From Escherichia phage vB_EcoA_4HA11, in the sequence record MN445184: 64,000 nt of DNA; one strand, written 5' to 3'. Positions within the stretch are counted from its first letter, which is position 1, and each line of letters opens with the position of its first letter. The notes below the pieces were generated by a model. That model saw nothing but the letters and a program-made list of their open reading frames with translations. It did no database searches and had not been told where the DNA came from. The translations under genes were made by a program, and so were the position numbers. Shown one piece after another: positions 81-18,515 of the stretch.

Positions 81-536
81 TTACATCCCATCCAAATATT
101 TTCGCCAATCAATAGCATTCTTCACTTCATATCCGAGTTTGTTCAAACGATCTAAGCAACTTTCGATGAACTTGACTTTGGCTTTCTGCTCTTGAAGCAT
201 GCTAGACAATTCGATATAATCATCATCTGCTTTTACCCAAACATCTATATCAGATTTCAGGGGTCGAACTTTTAATGGGCGTTCAACATAAACGTTGGGC
301 GGCAATTCCCCTGCATAAAATCGGCGTAAATAGAGATCTATTTGGCGAAATTTGCCAGTTAGATACTCCAGATATCTTCCTTCACGAATATAATGGCGTT
401 GCACAGTCATCCACGAACGACCAATTTTCAATGACATTTGGTCTAAGTTCATGTCTTCAGGATTTACCGAAATAAGAGGTTCCAATTCTGCCATTATATC
501 TTCGGTTTTCATCGTTTCAAGTTTTGTTTCGCTCAT
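81..536 (-). CDS. hypothetical protein
   Basis: 151-aa ORF, ATG start with AGGGAA Shine-Dalgarno; no recognisable motif. Confidence 0.55.
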   Translation of the reverse strand: MSETKLETMKTEDIMAELEPLISVNPEDMNLDQMSLKIGRSWMTVQRHYIREGRYLEYLTGKFRQIDLYLRRFYAGELPPNVYVERPLKVRPLKSDIDVWVKADDDYIELSSMLQEQKAKVKFIESCLDRLNKLGYEVKNAIDWRKYLDGM

Positions 537-574: not shown

Positions 575-1072
575 TTATTGTTTATCAATTTCGCGGGTGA
601 CGCGAGTCGGAGTCAGTTTCAAATATTTGAACGTGACAGTCGTGACCAGTTGGGGAACCGCAGCATCCACATCCACCAATACGTTGTCCAAAGCTGTGGG
701 ACGGGCTTCTTCCAACAACAATTGTAGACCAACAGGGCGATTCATGTTATCAAGAAGGTCGATGGTGATGTCACGGCTAACAGCTAAATCAGATCCAGCA
801 TTAGACGCAATCCAATTGTAAATCTGTTCCCAGTTGTACCAACTCTCATCGATAACGAACGTAAATACGATGGGGTCATACGTGAGACGTTCTGAAGGTA
901 TGGAGTTGAGCACATCGCCAGGGGATGGTCCCTCGATACCTTCAGAATACACTCCAGGAATACTGAAGTCATGTATTGAACGAGTAAGCAATATCAGGTC
1001 TCCGATAGTTAAGCGCCATTTATCGGAAGCCGCGAAATTAGGATTTTCGTTTTTGAATTGTACACCTGTCAT
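575..1072 (-). CDS. hypothetical virion/tail-associated protein
   Basis: 165-aa ORF with ATG start inside the late structural operon; function not recognisable. Confidence 0.5.
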   Translation of the reverse strand: MTGVQFKNENPNFAASDKWRLTIGDLILLTRSIHDFSIPGVYSEGIEGPSPGDVLNSIPSERLTYDPIVFTFVIDESWYNWEQIYNWIASNAGSDLAVSRDITIDLLDNMNRPVGLQLLLEEARPTALDNVLVDVDAAVPQLVTTVTFKYLKLTPTRVTREIDKQ

Positions 1073-1756: not shown

Positions 1757-2485
1757 TTATTTCAGGGACTCTTTTAATTCTGGAGTCCCTATTTTATCAA
1801 TAACGCCTCCAGCACAGAGATCTTTAGCCCATTCTCCAAGAACATTCGCAAAAGAGAAGTTTAGACATTCTTTGATCATACTTTCAATATGAGCAAGTTC
1901 TGCAGCTATCCCATCGGTGATATCGTTTATAACTCCATTGACGGCGGTTATTGCCTCATTGATATGTCCTGTTACTTCAGCAGCCAATTGCTGTAGTTTT
2001 GCCATCCCTTCTGAGGCACCTTCCATAATCATGTCATACAATTCCGATATCTTGTTTGTTACGGTCTGTAGAGCACCTTCCATAGCATTCAGCCATTGGC
2101 GTCCTAAATCCTGAACAACACCAAAAGCCTTGTTGATCAAATCACAATTGTTTGGCTCTCGTGATATACCCTTCAGACCTGATTTGTATGACACGGAAGT
2201 ACCGATGCGAGAATACGCGTCATTGATACTTTGGTCTCCATATGTGTTCAGTGTCGTTATCCCCGTGTTGGCGGCGCTATACATGGTGGTGGCTGCTGTG
2301 AGTTTTTCTGGTGTTAGTCCACCAGCAACCATAGCCGCCTGCATCTCCGGAGTCGCGTTGGCAGTTATCAATGGTATATTGGTACTACCACTGGTGATTA
2401 AATCCTGTGAGGGACCGGAGAGGGACGGAAGCGGGTTGCTAAATGCATTACCAGAGGAAAGGACATCGTAGATTTGTGCGTTCAT
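1757..2485 (-). CDS. hypothetical structural protein
   Basis: 242-aa ORF, ATG start, preceded by TATAAATA box and GGGGG-containing hairpin. Confidence 0.6.
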   Translation of the reverse strand: MNAQIYDVLSSGNAFSNPLPSLSGPSQDLITSGSTNIPLITANATPEMQAAMVAGGLTPEKLTAATTMYSAANTGITTLNTYGDQSINDAYSRIGTSVSYKSGLKGISREPNNCDLINKAFGVVQDLGRQWLNAMEGALQTVTNKISELYDMIMEGASEGMAKLQQLAAEVTGHINEAITAVNGVINDITDGIAAELAHIESMIKECLNFSFANVLGEWAKDLCAGGVIDKIGTPELKESLK

Positions 2486-2486
2486 A

Positions 2487-2516
2487 AAATACCCCCAATT
2501 TTGGGGGTATTTATAA
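2487..2516 (-). promoter_or_regulatory. late-promoter-like TATAAATA box fused to a 12-bp-arm perfect palindrome (AAATACCCCCAA/TTGGGGGTATTT) 1 nt upstream of the start codon
   Basis: Read directly; palindrome 2487-2512 has GGGGG (SD-like) in one arm; minus strand reads TTATAAATACCCCC. Confidence 0.45.
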
Positions 2517-2699
2517 TCATGGAAGATGATAGATAAAATTCTCGCAGAACTTTTTGGTGTATTTCTTTAGAAATATAAATTTAGGTTCGCGTGGTGTATT
2601 TTTCAGATCATTTAGTGTGATATAACTGATTCGCGCCAGAAAGTACATGGTAAAAGCGACACAAAGAATCAAAATTAATTGCAGCATAGCTAACTCCAT
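2517..2699 (-). CDS. small membrane protein (start uncertain)
   Basis: ORF-track start is GTG; internal ATGs with GGAG SD; hydrophobic segment LQLILILCVAFTMYFLA. Confidence 0.35.
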   Translation of the reverse strand: MELAMLQLILILCVAFTMYFLARISYITLNDLKNTPREPKFIFLKKYTKKFCENFIYHLP

Positions 2700-2721
2700 A
2701 TGGGTGTGAAGGCAAACATAT

Positions 2722-3144
2722 TTATAACAATCGTTTGGTTTTGGGTTTGCCCATGAGAGTGATATTGACATTGACACCTGCTTTTTTCATACGGGTAATC
2801 ATGTCTTGCGTCCCAGTAGACGAACCATCCCATAATGCAATTCCAAAGACCTCAAGACCTTTTTGTTTGGCCAGGGTTGTAGCTTTGTCTAACATATCTT
2901 TGTTACGTTGGTTTCCTGCGCCTTTCCCATATATCGTGTGATAATTCTTAGGGATCTCCATTGGTGTAACATGAACATAATTGATTTCACACCAATCACG
3001 AGATATCAAGTCCACACCAACCGCTTCACCTTCTATAAAAGTTTCGATCTCGTGGGGATCTAACAGTTCATCCAGTTTGGCGAAGATTTTATCCCGCTCG
3101 GTTATTGAGCGGGAACCTGTAATGAGCACGACATATTTCTTCAT
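2722..3144 (-). CDS. SLOG/DUF2493-like Rossmann-fold protein
   Basis: Start reset to MKKYVV; motifs LITGSRS, GEAVGVD and WDGSSTGT typical of the DprA/LOG-like SLOG fold. Confidence 0.5.
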   Translation of the reverse strand: MKKYVVLITGSRSITERDKIFAKLDELLDPHEIETFIEGEAVGVDLISRDWCEINYVHVTPMEIPKNYHTIYGKGAGNQRNKDMLDKATTLAKQKGLEVFGIALWDGSSTGTQDMITRMKKAGVNVNITLMGKPKTKRLL

Positions 3145-3149
3145 AGAAC

Positions 3150-3467
3150 TCACAGCGCCCCAAGATTGCTGATGACGTACAGGCTGCACAAGGGAGTCCC
3201 TGATGAACGAGGTTCTATGCTCATTCCCGAGAGGCGGATCAGTTCCAGCAAACCGTCGGTGGTCTGATACGCACGAGTCGAACCGTTTGGACGATATAGC
3301 TCCAACTCGGTTCGCCCTTCCTTTAATGCGTTACGGATGCGTGTGAATACGCTGTGGGCTTGATATTTTTGACGTAGAATATCTAAACGGGTGATGAGAT
3401 TTCGACTGCGGCTGCGACGTCCCGTTGACGAAACAACTAATTTCATTTCTGGTGTTTTACAAGCCAT
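3150..3467 (-). CDS. hypothetical protein
   Basis: 105-aa ORF, ATG, SD AGAGGA. Confidence 0.55.
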   Translation of the reverse strand: MACKTPEMKLVVSSTGRRSRSRNLITRLDILRQKYQAHSVFTRIRNALKEGRTELELYRPNGSTRAYQTTDGLLELIRLSGMSIEPRSSGTPLCSLYVISNLGAL

Positions 3468-3535
3468 GTTATAGTCCTCTATTTGTAGGGGTTGGGTATG
3501 ATTTTAACATACCCGTTCAAATGGTTTAGAACAAA

Positions 3536-4000
3536 TTACAGATCTTGGCACTGATCGCAATATTCGTCGTATGTGAATGTCTCATCACACAGGCCGTCAC
3601 GCATCATATCGGCCTTGGCTTCGCCAAACATTTTCAGGGTGATAACGTTGCCGTCTAAATCTTTACGAAGTTCGTTCGGCTTGGTTTCTATGAAGTCGAA
3701 CACCACAAAGAACCCTTCGGTGACATATTTGATGGTTTTGTTGCTCAGCTTACGGATGCCACCATTCTTTTTGAAGATAGAGGTGCGGAGGTTTTCGAAT
3801 TCGGCCAGATTGTCATCGTGATTCTTGATGGCGTTCAGCATTGCGTCAAGGTCGATTTCAGGACGAAGCATTTTGACCTGATCTTCGCGGTCATAAGAAG
3901 TGAAAGATTCTATGTTGGTGATGCCCAGAGCGTTTTTAACAAACGCGTCAAATTTGGTGAAATTGTTGAATGCCCAGACGGAGATTTTTACGGTTGTCAT
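3536..4000 (-). CDS. hypothetical protein
   Basis: 154-aa ORF, ATG, SD AAGGAA; immediately downstream of the repeated sigma70-like promoter element. Confidence 0.6.
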   Translation of the reverse strand: MTTVKISVWAFNNFTKFDAFVKNALGITNIESFTSYDREDQVKMLRPEIDLDAMLNAIKNHDDNLAEFENLRTSIFKKNGGIRKLSNKTIKYVTEGFFVVFDFIETKPNELRKDLDGNVITLKMFGEAKADMMRDGLCDETFTYDEYCDQCQDL

Positions 4001-4040
4001 GATGTAGTTCCTTCATTTCAGAGTCAGTGTTGTGCTGCTT

Positions 4041-4105
4041 ATGGAATGAAGTATACGGGGTTTATTGAAGAAGTAAACCCCGTTTATTGAATAAATTTTA
4101 AATTT
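4041..4105 (-). promoter_or_regulatory. sigma70-like promoter (GTTTAC-N17-TATACT) with AT-rich upstream element; copy 1 of a repeated ~60-bp element
   Basis: Near-identical element at 51261-51330; both sit 5' of a minus-strand gene start; contains palindrome TTTATTGAATAAA. Confidence 0.45.
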
Positions 4106-4340
4106 ATTTGAAGCGATCAGGAAGAGTGTCGTGAACCTCAGCGCTCAGCACCAGGAACTTGCCGTCTTTAGTAGGGAAGCAGTAGTCTTTCTTGATGTGG
4201 CGCATGTGTTCAGCCGTAGCCGCTACACAGTCGTTAGTCACGTCGGTCTTCTCACCTACCCACATACTGGTTTTGGTATTCAATGTACCTTGGAAGATAG
4301 TGCCCGTCAATGGGCTTGCTCCAATCTTTTTGATTCTCAT
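4104..4340 (-). CDS. hypothetical protein
   Basis: Start reset to ATG at 4340 (MRIKK) with GGGAG SD and ATGA overlap with the upstream stop. Confidence 0.5.
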   Translation of the reverse strand: MRIKKIGASPLTGTIFQGTLNTKTSMWVGEKTDVTNDCVAATAEHMRHIKKDYCFPTKDGKFLVLSAEVHDTLPDRFK

Positions 4341-4711
4341 AATTTCTCCCAAGTCCATGTTTGCGCCTTGGCTTTTCCGACTACTGGAACGTTACGGTGC
4401 ATGTTTCTGAAGCTGCCTGTCTGATAAAAACAGATCCTGATGCGTTCATTTTCGGTATGCTGTGCCCAAACATGATGACCGTCTGGGTATGGGTCGTGAC
4501 CAGCGCTACCTCCTTGTAGGGCTGTTTTGGTAACGACATAATGCCCTTGCATGTAACCGAAGAATCCCTCAGGGGTGATATAACCAGAGTCCGTTTGCCA
4601 ATCTCCCTTGCAATTAGAATACAAGAAATGCTTTGGCACCTGAGTTTCAACGGTCATTTCTTCTGTGAGGACGAACACATCGCCGACTTGAAGCAGTGGT
4701 AAATTGTTCAT
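4337..4711 (-). CDS. hypothetical protein
   Basis: 124-aa ORF, ATG, SD TGAGG. Confidence 0.55.
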   Translation of the reverse strand: MNNLPLLQVGDVFVLTEEMTVETQVPKHFLYSNCKGDWQTDSGYITPEGFFGYMQGHYVVTKTALQGGSAGHDPYPDGHHVWAQHTENERIRICFYQTGSFRNMHRNVPVVGKAKAQTWTWEKL

Positions 4712-4719
4712 AGTGGACC

Positions 4720-5160
4720 TCAGTTAATACGGAACAAATGTGGATAGCCACCAGGATGACCCTGGCCAGTAACGAACACGTCGAATTTTGAACCCTTGAT
4801 CAGGCCAGGCAGATTGCCGGAGTCCAGCAATTCACGGATCTGCTCCATCGCCAACATCCAGGTTTTGGCAGGTTCGGCTTCTGCTTCTCCTCGATTGAGT
4901 ACGAGTTCACCTTCGGAATAGAACTTCCCGCTGTCCTTCATATAGTACAACGTGATATGAATGTACTGAGGGGACGGAACTAAACGCCAACCGTCGTCGA
5001 TCAGATCTTGGCGATCATTGTCCAGTGACTGATAATCAATATCACCAGATGGCAAACCATAGCTGCGCATGTAGCGGAACTTCTCAACACGATCTTTCAC
5101 GTCGGAGATGAAGAACTCTTTCGTGGCAGGGCTGATGAATATGTATTTTCCTTTTGACAT
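4720..5160 (-). CDS. hypothetical protein
   Basis: 146-aa ORF, ATG, SD GAGAGAA. Confidence 0.6.
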   Translation of the reverse strand: MSKGKYIFISPATKEFFISDVKDRVEKFRYMRSYGLPSGDIDYQSLDNDRQDLIDDGWRLVPSPQYIHITLYYMKDSGKFYSEGELVLNRGEAEAEPAKTWMLAMEQIRELLDSGNLPGLIKGSKFDVFVTGQGHPGGYPHLFRIN

Positions 5161-5220
5161 GATGTAGTTCTCTCAGTGATAGACCATATCATAATAGCAC
5201 TGAGGACTGATAAAGAAAAA

Positions 5221-5868
5221 CTACATGAAATCTTTTACCCATTCAGGGTCTTCCATAGGAACCCAATTTTCGTATTTGAACATTTTGTACATGTTATAGA
5301 ACACTCGAATATTATTCCCGTCGTTCATCCGGTTACAAAATCGTTCATGCCCCCAACCTTCATTCTTCCATAATTGATAGAATTGGTCAGCCATAGCCCA
5401 AACGTGTTGGCATTTAGTTGCCCTTGGACGCTTCCATATCCTGATTTCATTCTGCCATTTGATCTGGGCTTGCCGTGATGTTTCCGAAAATCCAATTGGT
5501 TTGTTCTTTCCTCTTGTTACGTTAGACAAATGCGCCTTTGCTTCTTCGCTGAGTGGCCCAGTCCTTCCAAAATAAACGAGGGAACCATCTTTCTTAACAT
5601 GGAAACGATTTAAACAAAGAGGATTGGTGTGAACGGATTCGATCAATTGCGCTTCAACTTGGAGGGCTTCCTCTCCATCCCGACATAGCATTATCACTTC
5701 ATGGGTGAAGTAATCTGGTCCATGTTGTGATATAAGGGATTGGACAACTTTCGAGGACGTAAAATATTTTACCCAAAGTTCTTTGGGGTGACAGTTCTTT
5801 GCGTGACGACATCCATAATAGATGTGTCCATCTTTTGATTCTATTTTGTAAACGTATGGTTGGTTCAT
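5221..5868 (-). CDS. free-standing GIY-YIG homing endonuclease
   Basis: N-terminal YVYKIESKDGHIYYG...R GIY-YIG motif; sits beside the major capsid gene where T4 carries a seg-type endonuclease. Confidence 0.7.
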   Translation of the reverse strand: MNQPYVYKIESKDGHIYYGCRHAKNCHPKELWVKYFTSSKVVQSLISQHGPDYFTHEVIMLCRDGEEALQVEAQLIESVHTNPLCLNRFHVKKDGSLVYFGRTGPLSEEAKAHLSNVTRGKNKPIGFSETSRQAQIKWQNEIRIWKRPRATKCQHVWAMADQFYQLWKNEGWGHERFCNRMNDGNNIRVFYNMYKMFKYENWVPMEDPEWVKDFM

Positions 5869-5908
5869 AATTCCCCCTTTCAGGACATTATAACCCCATA
5901 CTTCTGAA

Positions 5909-5934
5909 ATAAAAACCCCGCCGAAGCGGGGTTT
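5909..5934 (-). terminator. intrinsic terminator after the major capsid gene
   Basis: CCCCGC-UUCG-GCGGGG stem-loop followed by U5 on the minus transcript. Confidence 0.65.
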
Positions 5935-5949
5935 GTAAGTCGTTGTTAA

Positions 5950-7272
5950 TTAAAACAAACTTTTGATTAAGCCCTTCCTGAAATACGGGTTGCTGTCTTG
6001 AGCAATACCGTCAGCAGTCACGTAAACCTGCGGGTCTTGGTTAGCCGGAATCTGTACGAACGGGTTAGCACAGATGCCGTAACGGGTTTTGAACGCCATA
6101 CGCGGAGCGAAGGTGGTTTCACCCTGGGTGCGGTACATTTCCAGCGGCACATACGGCGCGAAGAAGATACCGGCATCCAGCGCAGTTGCGCCTTTGTATG
6201 CCAGAGTGATATATTCTGCTACAGCATACGGGTCAACATAGACGCGCATACCGTTGGACAGAACACCAGCGAAGGTCTGGCCAGTCGGGTCAACAGCCAG
6301 TTTAGTGTTTTCCTGCAGAACCGGAGCATAGTCCAGCATGCCAGACATCGCCAGAGCGGATGCCACGTTCGGAGAACACAGAACACGGTTGCCTTTACCA
6401 CGACGGGTGTCAACACCGATACCGTTCGCTTCAACTTCCAGCATGAAAGTCAGGAACTTCCATTTTTCCAGCGCCCAACGACCAGAGATGTCCTGCGCGA
6501 TATCAACAACACCGTTGGTGCCGAATTTTTTGAAGCGAACAGCACTGAAGTTCATGGTGCGGATGAATTCACGGTTCATTTCCGCCTGAATTTCAGTTAC
6601 CATCACGTCAGACAGGATATTATCCACGTCTTCGCCGTGAATTGCCATCATGTCCTGACGCAGTTCATGGCTGTAATCAGCATACAGGCCGCGAGACTTG
6701 GCAGTAACGGTCGCTTTCTGAACAGTAATACCAACACGCGCCCAAGGGTTGGTGGTAGTACCCAGCAGTTCAGCGTCACTTGACGGCATACCTTTACCGA
6801 TAGTGGTCACGACAGAGCCGGAACCTTCGATTTCAGCCTGACTAAAGCCTGACGGGTCGCCAGCCTGTACAGTACCATCACCGGAATAGCCGGAATCGGC
6901 TTCCTGCATGAACAGTTCTTTACGAGACTGTGCGGTGTTGGAACTGTCACCAACACCCTGGCGAGCGCGCAGTGCAAAGATCTGACCGTCAGGACCAGAC
7001 AGCGGCTGAACACCGAAGAAGTCCATCGCGATGTTGATCGGCGCCAGACGTTTTGCCATGTCGATCAGAACTGGCTGCCATTTACCGACAGTGCTGTTCA
7101 CAGAACCAGGTGCGTCAGATTCGCCCAGGTTTTTTGCGTTCCATTCAGCCTGGTTCTGCATCAGACGGATGGTTACGTTTTCGGCAGACAGAGGTTGAAT
7201 AGCTTCAGATTCTTTTTGGAGAACTGGCAGCCACTGTTTGCGCATTTCTTCGGTTACAAGTTTCTTAGTCAT
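5950..7272 (-). CDS. major capsid protein (T4 gp23-like)
   Basis: Blocks matching T4 gp23 from memory: SGPDGQIFALRA, RVYVDPYA, DAGIFFAPYV, FKTRYGI..NPF; ATG start. Confidence 0.9.
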   Translation of the reverse strand: MTKKLVTEEMRKQWLPVLQKESEAIQPLSAENVTIRLMQNQAEWNAKNLGESDAPGSVNSTVGKWQPVLIDMAKRLAPINIAMDFFGVQPLSGPDGQIFALRARQGVGDSSNTAQSRKELFMQEADSGYSGDGTVQAGDPSGFSQAEIEGSGSVVTTIGKGMPSSDAELLGTTTNPWARVGITVQKATVTAKSRGLYADYSHELRQDMMAIHGEDVDNILSDVMVTEIQAEMNREFIRTMNFSAVRFKKFGTNGVVDIAQDISGRWALEKWKFLTFMLEVEANGIGVDTRRGKGNRVLCSPNVASALAMSGMLDYAPVLQENTKLAVDPTGQTFAGVLSNGMRVYVDPYAVAEYITLAYKGATALDAGIFFAPYVPLEMYRTQGETTFAPRMAFKTRYGICANPFVQIPANQDPQVYVTADGIAQDSNPYFRKGLIKSLF

Positions 7273-7324
7273 GATGCTCGTTCCTTACATTGATATTCAG
7301 TTAAGTTGAAATTACTTAGTAGTT

Positions 7325-7352
7325 CAAAATCAAGCCCCCTTTCGAGGGCTGT
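7325..7352 (-). terminator. hairpin between scaffold and capsid genes (weak terminator)
   Basis: AGCCC/GGGCU stem with U-rich tail on the minus transcript. Confidence 0.35.
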
Positions 7353-7363
7353 GGCTGCTAAAA

Positions 7364-8203
7364 TTAGCCGTTCAGCAAAGCACTGATCTGGCGACGGACG
7401 GCTTCGTTGACTTCTTTGCCAACTTCGTCTTTGTCATCATCGTCATCGTCATCATCGTCGGCTTCACCTTCTTTCTTCGGTTTTTTACCTTCTTTGATGT
7501 CTTTTTCAGACTTGTCGCCATCCGGCTTGCCTTTTTCATTGTCTTTGCCGACTTTATCAGAGAAGTCATCTTTGCCTTCTACCAGGTTACGGAAGGTGCG
7601 CACACGGGATTCAAATTCAGACTCGGTCTGGAATTCAATACCTTCCAGCAGGTTGACAACAGTGTCTTTCTTGGTGTCAACCATACCTTCACAAATACGA
7701 TCAATGACATCATTGCGCTGGCGTTTGGTTTCACTTTCTTTGAGCTGAGCCAATTCAGTATTGGCAATGCTGGCGCGTTTCTCTGCTTCAGCCAGGCGGT
7801 TGGTGAGAGCTGCAATCTGACCGTCTGGGTCAGTGGCGAAACTAACACCTGCTTCTTTCAGAACATTAGAGAAACCAGTGAGGAAGCGTTCAGCAGCTTC
7901 GGTTTTGATCTGAGCGTCAATGGCCGGAGCATTTTTGTTAGCCCATTCTTCAACAACCGCGTTGAGGAACGAATCAACTTTTTCCGCCAACTGAAGAGTG
8001 AAATTTTCTTTAAGGTCTGCGACTTCTTTCTGGTGGGCTTCTACCAGAGTCAGGCGCTCAACGTTACCAGCCGCTTCAGTTTCTTGAATAGCTTGCAGAC
8101 GGGCGGCTTCAACTTTAGATTCCAGCAGACCAGATACTTTGTCCAAGAAATCGGTGCTGAGGCCATTAACGCCTTCAAACAGTTTTTGCAATTCAGGTTT
8201 CAT
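7364..8203 (-). CDS. prohead scaffold protein (T4 gp22-like)
   Basis: Position between protease and capsid genes; alpha-helical charged sequence; poly-Asp C-terminal tract. Confidence 0.65.
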   Translation of the reverse strand: MKPELQKLFEGVNGLSTDFLDKVSGLLESKVEAARLQAIQETEAAGNVERLTLVEAHQKEVADLKENFTLQLAEKVDSFLNAVVEEWANKNAPAIDAQIKTEAAERFLTGFSNVLKEAGVSFATDPDGQIAALTNRLAEAEKRASIANTELAQLKESETKRQRNDVIDRICEGMVDTKKDTVVNLLEGIEFQTESEFESRVRTFRNLVEGKDDFSDKVGKDNEKGKPDGDKSEKDIKEGKKPKKEGEADDDDDDDDDKDEVGKEVNEAVRRQISALLNG

Positions 8204-8249
8204 GATAGTTTCCTTCTGAACGATTTTTCAGTATTTAGTGAGCTGAATT

Positions 8250-9422: not shown

Positions 9423-9463
9423 GATTTTGATCTCCGAATTAATTTTCTATATTTAGTTGAACT

Positions 9464-14230: not shown

Positions 14231-14238
14231 TATTTAGT
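14231..14238 (-). promoter_or_regulatory. late-promoter-like box ACTAAATA upstream of tail sheath
   Basis: Minus-strand ACTAAATA (T4 late consensus is TATAAATA); same octamer recurs before other late genes. Confidence 0.4.
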
Positions 14239-18457: not shown

Positions 18458-18515
18458 AATATTTTCCTCAAGATTTAAATATATTTAGTTGAATTTGTTT
18501 TTAAGGTGAATCAAT

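Follow-up and report, generated by a model that had tools for sequence, protein, structure and literature searches.

Introduction

The ligand pocket of the SLOG protein DprA carries a two-part signature for single-stranded DNA (ssDNA), G-S/T/A-R followed by F/L/Y-x-x-R-N/D (R52 and R143/N144), and the substitutions R52E and R143E lower its affinity 170- to 315-fold (Wang et al., PMC3950713); the equivalent arginines are needed in ShosA (PMC12961424). SLOG domains have been reported in roughly one fifth of medium-sized phages, and those of the YAcAr family, formerly DUF2493, are treated in two comparative-genomics papers that list YAcAr/SLOG domains in phages and predict the use or sensing of NAD+/ADP-ribose derivatives (PMC7824862, PMC9503650). 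The subject of this work is the YAcAr gene of Escherichia phage vB_EcoA_4HA11 (sequence record MN445184), which occupies positions 2722..3144 on the minus strand of the 64,000-nucleotide stretch analyzed here (hereafter, the window) and encodes a SLOG protein of 140 amino acids, plus stop, equivalent to orf137 of Salmonella phage S117.

DUF2493/YAcAr is among the commonest uncharacterized domains on phages, plasmids and integrative elements, and two incompatible functions are assumed for it in annotation and in the literature: DprA-like handling of ssDNA, and the sensing or degradation of ADP-ribose-derived immune signals. Viral SLOG fusions to Macro, NADAR and DUF4326 have been described (Iyer et al., 2022), and the HelB protein of phage ICP1 is an SF1B, Dda-type helicase with a C-terminal DUF2493 domain (bioRxiv 10.1101/671271). 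In phage T4, the last ~7 residues of the late-transcription coactivator gp33, set behind a 3-residue linker, constitute a sliding-clamp-binding motif that late transcription requires and that can be swapped with the gp55 and gp43 tails (PMC2988020, PMC7892883). The SLOG-fold open reading frame (ORF) of vB_EcoA_4HA11 is itself ordinary, and already present in public annotation and in the two surveys; what is new is a lineage-specific C-terminal tail common to the SLOG protein and to the gp33-like coactivator of the same phage, together with the clamp-tethering hypothesis that results from it.

Results

A YAcAr domain with a conserved ligand pocket

The translated ORF contains the motifs LITGSRS (residues 7-13), GEAVGVD (39-45) and WDGSSTGT (105-112), from which a preliminary description of this DNA had proposed a DUF2493-like protein with a SLOG (DprA/LOG-like) fold. 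Both parts of the proposal were confirmed. The Pfam family PF10686 (YAcAr, 'YspA, cpYpsA-related SLOG family', ex-DUF2493) matches the protein with E=9.7e-9 and 35.4 bits against a gathering cut-off of 28.2, and it also matches all 29 aligned relatives. An AlphaFold2 model computed from 20 orthologues (predicted local distance difference test, pLDDT, 93.6; predicted template modelling score, pTM, 0.87) has the topology b1-a1-b2-a2-b3-a3-b4-a4-b5, with two features expected of a SLOG Rossmannoid core, a five-stranded parallel sheet and polar residues conserved behind strands 1 and 3. A single-sequence search of the PDB returned only a chance match (glucose-6-phosphate isomerase, E=1.4) and was uninformative, so that a profile search was needed. 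Among solved structures, the profile of the 29 family members found DprA chains only, those of S. pneumoniae (3uqz, E=0.0038) and H. pylori, the 3uqz alignment pairing GSR and G.A.G.D of the family profile with DprA. The SLOG assignment stands, since the profile search, set beforehand as its refutation test, did find SLOG-fold similarity.

The family is broadly distributed. When 1.84 billion cluster representatives were searched with a profile, 19,253 matched at E<=1e-3, most of them stand-alone proteins of 115-140 amino acids, and tblastn located the SLOG protein in 587 GenBank phage records from many genera. One homologue is present on 177 plasmids, mostly conjugative rhizobial ones, and BFVD holds dozens of viral 'DUF2493/YspA/DprA-like' proteins, ranging from tailed phages to Pandoravirus and Marseillevirus. 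The UniRef name of the orthologues is 'YspA cpYpsA-related SLOG domain-containing protein', but several other labels are in circulation. The GenBank labels 'chromosome segregation protein', 'aspartate kinase' and 'phosphoribosyl transferase' were rejected for want of a supporting family match, and so was 'GTP-binding domain' (GenBank/PHROGs), the protein having no Walker A GxxxxGK[ST] or G-domain motifs and the Pfam scan yielding no GTPase family. The source of this last label is phrog_289, which the SLOG protein matches at E=4e-43 and which is a 500-position chimeric profile of three consecutive genes (SLOG protein at 20-146, a downstream 56-aa ORF at 161-207 and DUF7217 at 259-500). The chimera was probably caused by a 475-aa ORF of Salmonella phage 38 (BFVD A0A0N7CDB8) that spans the genes of 1757-3144, and the misleading label is now found in many RefSeq phage records.

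Alignment of the 29 diverse family members reveals nine invariant and five nearly invariant positions, grouped in four motifs, the fourth of which (AGNQRN, residues 76-81) comes in addition to the three initially described. The protein is a stand-alone YAcAr SLOG domain with an intact pocket (GSR, GxAxGxD, AGxxRN, SxGT), and the agreement of its motifs with the family-conserved positions (G10, R12, G39, A41, G43, D45, R80, N81, S109, G111 and T112) is, judging from the alignment, far beyond chance. The loop after strand 1, G10-S11-R12 (3109..3117, minus strand, as are the other three), corresponds to motif 1 (G-S/T/A-R) of the DprA ssDNA pocket, with G10 invariant and R12 nearly so. In the loop after strand 2, G39-E-A-V-G-V-D45 (GxAxGxD; 3010..3030), residues G39, A41, G43 and D45 are invariant, and so are, in the long helix after strand 3, A76-G-N-Q-R80-N81 (2902..2919), residues R80 and N81, the R-N pair of DprA motif 2. 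The loop after strand 4, W105-D-G-S-S-T-G-T112 (2809..2832), forms a phosphate-binding-type SxGT turn with S109, G111 and T112 invariant. In the model, the residues of all four motifs are found around the canonical ligand site, which is located at the sheet's C-terminal edge.

The nearest characterized family, as far as sequence comparison can tell, is DprA. The residues of the DprA ssDNA signature have conserved counterparts in R12 and R80/N81; the Pfam DprA family PF02481 is matched, below threshold, by 12 of the 29 members (best E 1.2e-8), and among the matches listed by the profile search many carry a precomputed PF02481 assignment besides PF10686. YpsA, cpYpsA and LDcluster4, in turn, are matched weakly and by only one or two of the 29 (YpsA by one, at E=0.019). 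The LOG signature is not preserved: the first loop reads GSR instead of GGGxG, PGGxGTxxE is reduced to its remnant SxGT without the conserved acid, the positions after the loop being variable, and the LOG family PF03641 does not match the query. The protein is hence best described as a minimal DprA-like pocket, because the DprA signatures are kept, motif 2 without its aromatic residue, and the LOG motif is not; the extra domains of DprA are absent.

The same comparison bears on the notion that the protein is a nucleotide-processing enzyme, either a LOG-like N-glycosidase/phosphoribohydrolase or the partner of a phosphoribosyltransferase (PRTase), acting on free nucleotides or modified bases in pool or hypermodification metabolism. 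Three of the invariant residues, the polar D45, R80 and N81, could serve in catalysis, the phage hypermodifies thymidine and encodes HMUDK, HMUD2, ADDT and a pyridoxal phosphate (PLP)-dependent enzyme, and in mycobacteriophage Smeadley (locus L006, 4248-5363) a PRTase gene directly precedes the homologue, echoing the pairing of PRTase and DprA-like protein in ShosTA. A LOG-like enzymatic role is nonetheless less likely because the catalytic motif is not kept, the acidic position varying among D, H, N, G, C and T across the family. The hypermodification cluster, moreover, lies 45-58 kb from the SLOG gene in the window, no PRTase gene is adjacent to it, the gene immediately upstream (orf138) has no informative fold match, and many phages and plasmids whose DNA is unmodified have YAcAr proteins. 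An enzymatic role is consequently regarded as quite unlikely.

The pocket also speaks to the main rival explanation, a published computational prediction for viral SLOG domains, in which an anti-defence protein would use its pocket to sponge or cleave an ADP-ribose-derived immune signal, such as the 2'/3' cyclic ADP-ribose (cADPR) of Thoeris TIR proteins, and thereby blunt abortive infection. Viral SLOGs have been predicted to sense or degrade cADPR-type signals (Iyer et al., 2022), a survey of jumbo phages agrees for YAcAr, the fold resembles those of the ThsA SLOG domain and TRPM2, and family curators have placed YAcAr in the corresponding clade. The GxD/E signature of YpsA-like SLOGs (PMC6459960) is also present, as the invariant G43-V-D45 of the GEAVGVD loop. 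This loop also contains the G.A.GID of DprA, and the signature does not discriminate YpsA from DprA because DprA shares it. The YpsA family PF06908 does not match the query, and in sequence the protein has DprA, rather than YpsA or the LD-cluster SLOGs, as its nearer relative. PADLOC models, including those of ThsA and ShosA, detect neither the SLOG protein nor its neighbours, and no TIR, SIR2 or Macro domain was found near the gene in Pfam, PHROG and PADLOC scans of the neighbours or in record annotations. Support for an anti-defence role is thus far computational throughout. The sponges Tad1, Tad2, Acb2 and Acb4 are not described as SLOG proteins in the literature examined and are not known to have the SLOG fold.

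A C-terminal tail in common with gp33

The SLOG protein ends in a tail, G132-KPKTKRLL140 (2725..2751, minus strand), that is invariant in the Ackermannviridae (consensus L-x-G-x-P-K-x-K-R-L) and recurs in metagenomic relatives as KSKRLF, KSRRLI and KTKRLM, whereas YAcAr members outside the Ackermannviridae clade end right after strand 5. Two tail-bearing metagenomic proteins, P0037 and P0038, were not found in GenBank phages. With a pLDDT of 58, the tail is the sole low-confidence part of the AlphaFold2 model, in which it appears flexible, and it holds the net positive charge of the protein, raising an isoelectric point (pI) of 6.3 for the core to 8.9 for the whole.

Similar C-termini were sought among the 420 ORFs of at least 60 amino acids read in six frames from a genome of ~158 kb assembled from S117 and the window. 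The strict pattern [KR][ST][KR][KR][LI][LIVFM]-COOH is present in 2 of the 420, the SLOG protein and the gp33-like late-transcription coactivator (PF16805, E=4.6e-19), which ends in …GELKSKKLI; the chance of a match per protein is 7e-6 to 2e-5. Only a loose form of the pattern is seen in rIIA (…SKRILGA), and the genome-wide scan did not find it in gp55, UvsW, UvsX, gp32, gp41, gp59, ligase or RNase H. The gp33 tails of related phages keep the pattern (KSKKIL in Taipeivirus, KSKKLV in Limestonevirus, KPRSKKLI in Miltonvirus and KTRKLF in a Vibrio relative). In the divergent Vibrio phage D509, the 45 kb examined yielded no SLOG homologue.

The tail of the Kuttervirus gp33 occupies the position of the clamp-binding motif of T4 gp33. 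A second positional equivalence is provided by the family-B DNA polymerase, whose last 15 residues (HKRRVNLLSMMGKKG; 55170..55214, plus strand) stand where T4 gp43 has its clamp-binding tail, EEKASLDFLFG. The polymerase segment KRRVNLL aligns with T4 SLDFLFG and is kept in Taipeivirus and in the Vibrio relative. The polymerase tail is thus also basic with a Leu-Leu pair, and clamp-type tails therefore appear to have changed to this composition in this phage family. The SLOG tail has the build of a clamp ligand, with a short conserved motif at the extreme C-terminus, a flexible linker and the motif in common with the gp33-like protein. On the grounds of motif identity and positional homology, we infer that the SLOG protein may be a ligand of the sliding clamp gp45; no report of a SLOG protein as a clamp ligand was found in the literature examined. 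An anti-defence role, in contrast, leaves the gp33-like tail unexplained.

The gp55-like late sigma factor (S117 orf97; locus L026, 19017-19808) ends in …EREQQNNGDC, with no recognizable clamp-binding tail, and the late-transcription clamp contact in this phage family may rest on gp33 alone.

Genomic contexts of the family

The contexts of relatives were sampled by hand from annotated records and do not amount to a census, but they lean clearly towards replication and recombination. The homologue directly follows the DNA polymerase gene in E. coli phage CWW26, lies between clamp and polymerase in Vibrio phage VspDsh_1, is two genes from a RecA-like gene and ahead of the ribonucleotide reductase gene in Campylobacter phage F368, and, in a Streptomyces and a Pseudomonas phage, comes after a primase/polymerase and DnaC, respectively. 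A Toprim primase is encoded a short distance from it in an integrative element of Campylobacter, and on a plasmid of Agrobacterium it comes after genes for a primase and a giant methylase; a metagenomic phage contig has PolA, uracil-DNA glycosylase and clamp loader genes near it. In Streptomyces, the YAcAr domain is fused to DciA. In the T4-like Vibrio phage nt-1 (locus L021, 3486-5137), a stand-alone YAcAr gene is directly upstream of dda, and this adjacency, together with the ICP1 fusion, links the YAcAr domain to Dda-type SF1B helicases. The remaining sampled loci consist of runs of small ORFs and are uninformative.

These contexts also weigh on the anti-defence explanation. Neither Macro and NADAR nor DUF4326 was met in the hand-sampled contexts, in spite of the fusions described for viral SLOGs, and relatives neighbour replication genes at thousands of loci in plasmids, islands and phages. 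In favour of that explanation, the protein is small and stands alone, and its gene closes a run of small ORFs that differs in make-up from genus to genus. The gene itself, nevertheless, occupies a constant site in all Ackermannviridae genera sampled (Kuttervirus, Agtrevirus, Limestonevirus, Taipeivirus and Nezavisimistyvirus), a constancy not typical of accessory anti-defence genes. Taken together, an anti-defence role is considered somewhat unlikely.

In Smeadley, where a DnaB gene is nearby, the PRTase gene and the YAcAr/'DprA-like' gene reproduce the domain pairing of ShosTA (PRTase toxin, DprA-like antitoxin), and the pair may represent a phage-borne ShosTA-like module based on a short YAcAr domain.

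Relation to late transcription and the virion

The preliminary description had regarded the location of the gene among late genes as unexpected for a structural component and had called for virion proteomics to see whether the protein is packaged. Neither an odd position nor a structural role is supported by the features of the region. A strong intrinsic terminator after the major capsid gene (5913..5934, minus strand; 9-bp stem with 6 GC pairs, followed by a T-run) splits the capsid operon from the small-ORF cluster to which the SLOG gene belongs, and a terminator is annotated at the equivalent place after the capsid gene in the record of phage Magnus. Beyond this terminator, a scan for sigma-70 promoters and terminators upstream of the SLOG gene gave nothing decisive. 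The motif (C/A)TAAATA is found upstream of the scaffold, orf148, sheath and gp14 genes, and TATAAATA upstream of the DUF7217 gene and the 56-aa ORF, but on the minus strand no (C/A)TAAATA motif occurs from 2726 to 8232, a stretch that includes the SLOG gene and the ORFs preceding it. The TATAAATA copy at 2719..2726 (minus strand) overlaps the SLOG stop codon and therefore serves the downstream genes, marking the start of the unit formed by the 56-aa ORF and the DUF7217 gene. The region, besides, shows synteny with T4-type genomes, in which morphogenesis genes are interspersed with UvsY/UvsW and with small accessory genes, and the position of the SLOG gene is therefore not unexpected. The gene is part of the morphogenesis block by map position only.

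The T4 late promoter TATAAATA was dropped as a marker, with only 4 copies in 64 kb and no enrichment, in favour of the local motif (C/A)TAAATA. The latter (MTAAATA) is observed 29 times against 17.3 expected, and it looks, on sequence grounds, like an Ackermannviridae variant of the late promoter. Minus-strand sites are located at 8232-8238, 9450-9456, 14231-14237, 18482-18488, 2508-2515 and 2719-2726; the sequence ahead of morphogenesis genes is CA-CTAAATA or TATAAATA and not uniformly the T4 TATAAATA, the DUF7217 gene has a TATAAATA of its own upstream, and the capsid gene is preceded by CTAAGTA only. A search of the literature on Ackermannviridae transcriptomics and RNA-seq returned nothing relevant, with expression timing inferred.

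The virion proteome of Kuttervirus Sajous1, obtained by liquid chromatography-tandem mass spectrometry (LC-MS/MS) from CsCl-purified particles, does not list the SLOG orthologue gp164 (PMC10892097, Table 6), which is weak negative evidence. The list reaches down to a single spectrum and includes the structural proteins on both flanks, with 924 spectra for the major capsid protein gp157, 1 for gp160, 8 for gp166 (DUF7217) and 8 for gp168 (gp3-like) (PMC10892097). The absence of gp164 agrees with the promoter picture, and DUF7217 is probably a minor structural protein because gp166 was found in virions. The 'ferritin / molybdate operon' (gp214-217) of the Sajous1 paper is a locus distinct from DUF7217.

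That the SLOG protein is itself a packaged or structural late protein would be suggested by the position of its gene between capsid and tail-completion genes, by its co-orientation with the morphogenesis genes and by its neighbours, DUF7217 and the gp3-like protein, being virion proteins, as well as by the proposal that some ADP-ribose-processing domains (Macro, NADAR and Nudix are named) encoded among head genes may be packaged (Iyer et al., 2022). The missing gp164, the terminator, the lack of a late-promoter-like motif and the occurrence of homologues elsewhere in early or replication regions all point in the opposite direction, and make a virion component very improbable.

Organization of the locus

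The first 9 kb of the window are 99.9% identical to Salmonella phage S117, and more than 100 further genomes of Kuttervirus (Ackermannviridae, ViI-like) match them over at least 80% of their length. In transcription order, the minus-strand block is headed by the prohead protease, scaffold and major capsid protein (5950-7272) genes. After the capsid terminator comes a GIY-YIG homing endonuclease gene (5221-5868), and a cluster of five small ORFs, orf142 to orf138, separates it from the SLOG gene. The ORFs between the SLOG and capsid genes differ among Ackermannviridae genera. The interval 5221-5868 also varies among Kuttervirus isolates: many records align in two pieces with 96% covered, and in SJ3 and Sajous1 an 846-nt ORF takes the place of the endonuclease. 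The 103-nt gap between orf140 and orf139 (4001-4103, minus strand) contains a perfect 10-bp inverted repeat, ACGGGGTTTA…TAAACCCCGT, with a 9-nt loop and no T-run after it, which could be a terminator or a processing site within the small-ORF cluster.

The SLOG gene probably starts at the ATG at 3144, because this codon is 5 nt beyond the stop of the upstream ORF (orf138, 3150..3467, minus strand) and because the orthologues of other genera all begin at the equivalent Met; a start at GTG-3189, as annotated in some records, would extend the gene into the upstream one. The 105-aa product of orf138 has a basic disordered N-terminus and a small alpha/beta domain, for which a structure model and fold search gave no informative match. 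Its homologues are confined to the Ackermannviridae, where they are kept directly upstream of the SLOG gene with 27-36% identity across genera, abutting or overlapping its start, and orf138 is probably translationally coupled to it. Directly downstream, also on the minus strand, are the 56-aa ORF (2517..2687), conserved in synteny and largely hydrophobic in sequence, with a 'putative membrane protein' annotated for this region in one record, and the DUF7217 gene (1757-2485; 242 aa, helical). Then follow a DUF7424 gene on the strand opposite to SLOG, the gene of the gp3-like tail-completion protein (575-1072, minus strand) and UvsY (81-536, minus strand). The SLOG gene is thus four genes ahead of UvsY, after which, beyond the window, come the exonuclease, UvsW and the clamp (gp45, S117 orf128) and clamp-loader genes.

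At the other end of the window, a plus-strand thymidine-hypermodification cluster (47336-59628) flanks the family-B DNA polymerase gene (52062-55217). It comprises genes for a PLP-dependent enzyme (47336-48529), an NT5C-like nucleotidase (55573-56415), 5-hydroxymethyldeoxyuridine (5-hmdU) DNA kinase 2 (56731-57636) and an amino-acid:DNA transferase (58393-59628); a second HMUDK is encoded elsewhere in the genome, as orf123 of S117. ARAGORN called tRNA-Met, tRNA-Asn and tRNA-Ser on the plus strand in 44027-45348, but not the tRNA-Tyr annotated in S117 between Asn and Ser. Past ~42 kb, the window and S117 are offset by ~700 bp, and an indel is therefore placed in the tRNA region.

Discussion

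Several lines of evidence converge on a tentative model, to which we assign a probability of roughly 0.4, in which the SLOG protein is a minimal DprA-like nucleotide- or ssDNA-binding accessory tethered to the clamp of replication and late transcription. The model is preferred because of the DprA-like pocket, the replication and recombination neighbourhoods and fusions of the family, the non-virion status of the protein and its gp33-type tail. In this model, the pocket would hold one nucleotide unit, with the phosphate bound through the GSR and SxGT turns and the base and sugar through R80, N81 and D45, and the ligand would most likely be a nucleotide of ssDNA, as for DprA and ShosA. The flexible tail KPKTKRLL-COOH would dock the protein on gp45 at the site of the gp33 coactivator, making it a non-structural accessory of the replication, recombination and late-transcription machinery on DNA, which might handle ssDNA at clamp-loaded junctions or, alternatively, contend with gp33 and the polymerase for access to the clamp. 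A fuller version of the proposal would make it the first SLOG/DprA-like protein recruited to a clamp, with a tail copied from or shared with gp33, reading an ssDNA or nucleotide ligand at clamp-loaded junctions in competition with gp33 and polymerase, and coupling the state of replication and recombination (or nucleotide/NAD-derived signals) to late transcription in the Ackermannviridae; in its entirety, this version is rather unlikely.

A number of observations weigh against the clamp-tethered, DprA-like model. With regard to the domain, the query has no match to PF02481 at E<=1 and is hence not a DprA by the Pfam criterion; its 140 amino acids compare with ~210 in the DprA domain, and the dimerization and RecA-binding elements of DprA are lacking. 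In motif 2, for which F/L/Y-x-x-R-N/D or A-M-x-R-N/D are the accepted forms in DprA, the R-N pair is invariant but a Gly (G77) stands where F/L/Y is expected. The domain without its tail is mildly acidic, the curators of YAcAr place the family in a YpsA-like clade and predict ADP-ribose-derived ligands for it (PMC9503650, PMC7824862), and no experimental study of any YAcAr protein was found in the literature. With regard to the tail, the binding of gp45 by the Kuttervirus gp33 through its C-terminus is itself extrapolated from T4, whose clamp-binding motifs are hydrophobic/acidic (SLDFLFG), whereas the SLOG and gp33 tails are basic with Leu-Leu/Ile. The gp55-like protein has no such tail, the polymerase tail resembles that of the SLOG protein only loosely, and a basic-hydrophobic C-terminus could instead serve to bind DNA or to be recognized by ClpX.

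This last possibility constitutes an alternative in its own right, in which the likeness to gp33 would reflect shared turnover control, through ClpX-type recognition and degradation, or plain DNA affinity. Both KTKRLL and KSKKLI consist of basic residues followed by two aliphatics at a free C-terminus, and the SLOG tail resembles a MuA-like class of C-terminal ClpX signals, RRKKAI-COOH, reportedly defined by Flynn and colleagues in 2003. The contrast with the T4 motifs and the gp55-like protein without a motif fit this alternative as well. On the other hand, it does not account for the placement of the gp33 tail exactly at the T4 clamp-motif position (3-residue linker, last ~7 residues), nor for the polymerase tail aligned with T4 SLDFLFG, the similar composition of which suggests a lineage-wide change in the clamp motif. 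A degradation tag or DNA-binding tail is accordingly judged unlikely, an assessment that stands independently of those given to the other alternatives.

The match between the Ackermannviridae tail and the presumed clamp-binding tail of gp33 provides a concrete experimental handle on a family with conflicting functional assumptions. If the tail binds gp45, the SLOG protein would be located at the DNA alongside the machinery of replication and late transcription, favouring DNA handling, and would represent a new class of client for the phage clamp 'tool-belt'; clamp tethering, if true, would be of considerably greater interest than the domain by itself. Should the tail fail to bind and cADPR-type molecules prove to be the ligand instead, the protein would constitute a new anti-Thoeris fold. 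The phages that carry the gene are under development for Salmonella and E. coli biocontrol.

When set against the systems described for related proteins, the SLOG protein of vB_EcoA_4HA11 differs from DprA/Smf, which binds ssDNA and loads RecA, and from ShosA, the antitoxin of ShosTA, in being ~70 residues shorter than the DprA domain and in lacking SAM or winged-helix domains and a known dimer or RecA interface. The LOG or 'lysine decarboxylase-like' phosphoribohydrolases rely on a catalytic acid that is not conserved here. YpsA of B. subtilis (2nx2) has 16% identity to the protein, and the inhibition of FtsZ and cell division reported for YpsA in Firmicutes finds no contextual support at this locus. 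The SLOG domain of ThsA in type I Thoeris (7uxs, bound to 3'cADPR) is host-encoded and fused to an effector, whereas the protein described here is phage-encoded and has no SIR2 or effector fusion. In ICP1 HelB the domain is fused to the helicase, while here it is free-standing, with no adjacent Dda-type helicase. The closest correspondence is with the YAcAr/DUF2493 family itself, with which the protein shares all four motifs, a typical size (115-140 aa), the stand-alone build and the distribution over phages, plasmids and islands, but whose other members are missing the 9-residue C-terminal tail GKPKTKRLL. In that tail, the protein follows instead the arrangement of the T4 sliding-clamp-binding motifs of gp33, gp55, gp43 and ligase, a short motif at the extreme C-terminus carried on a flexible linker.

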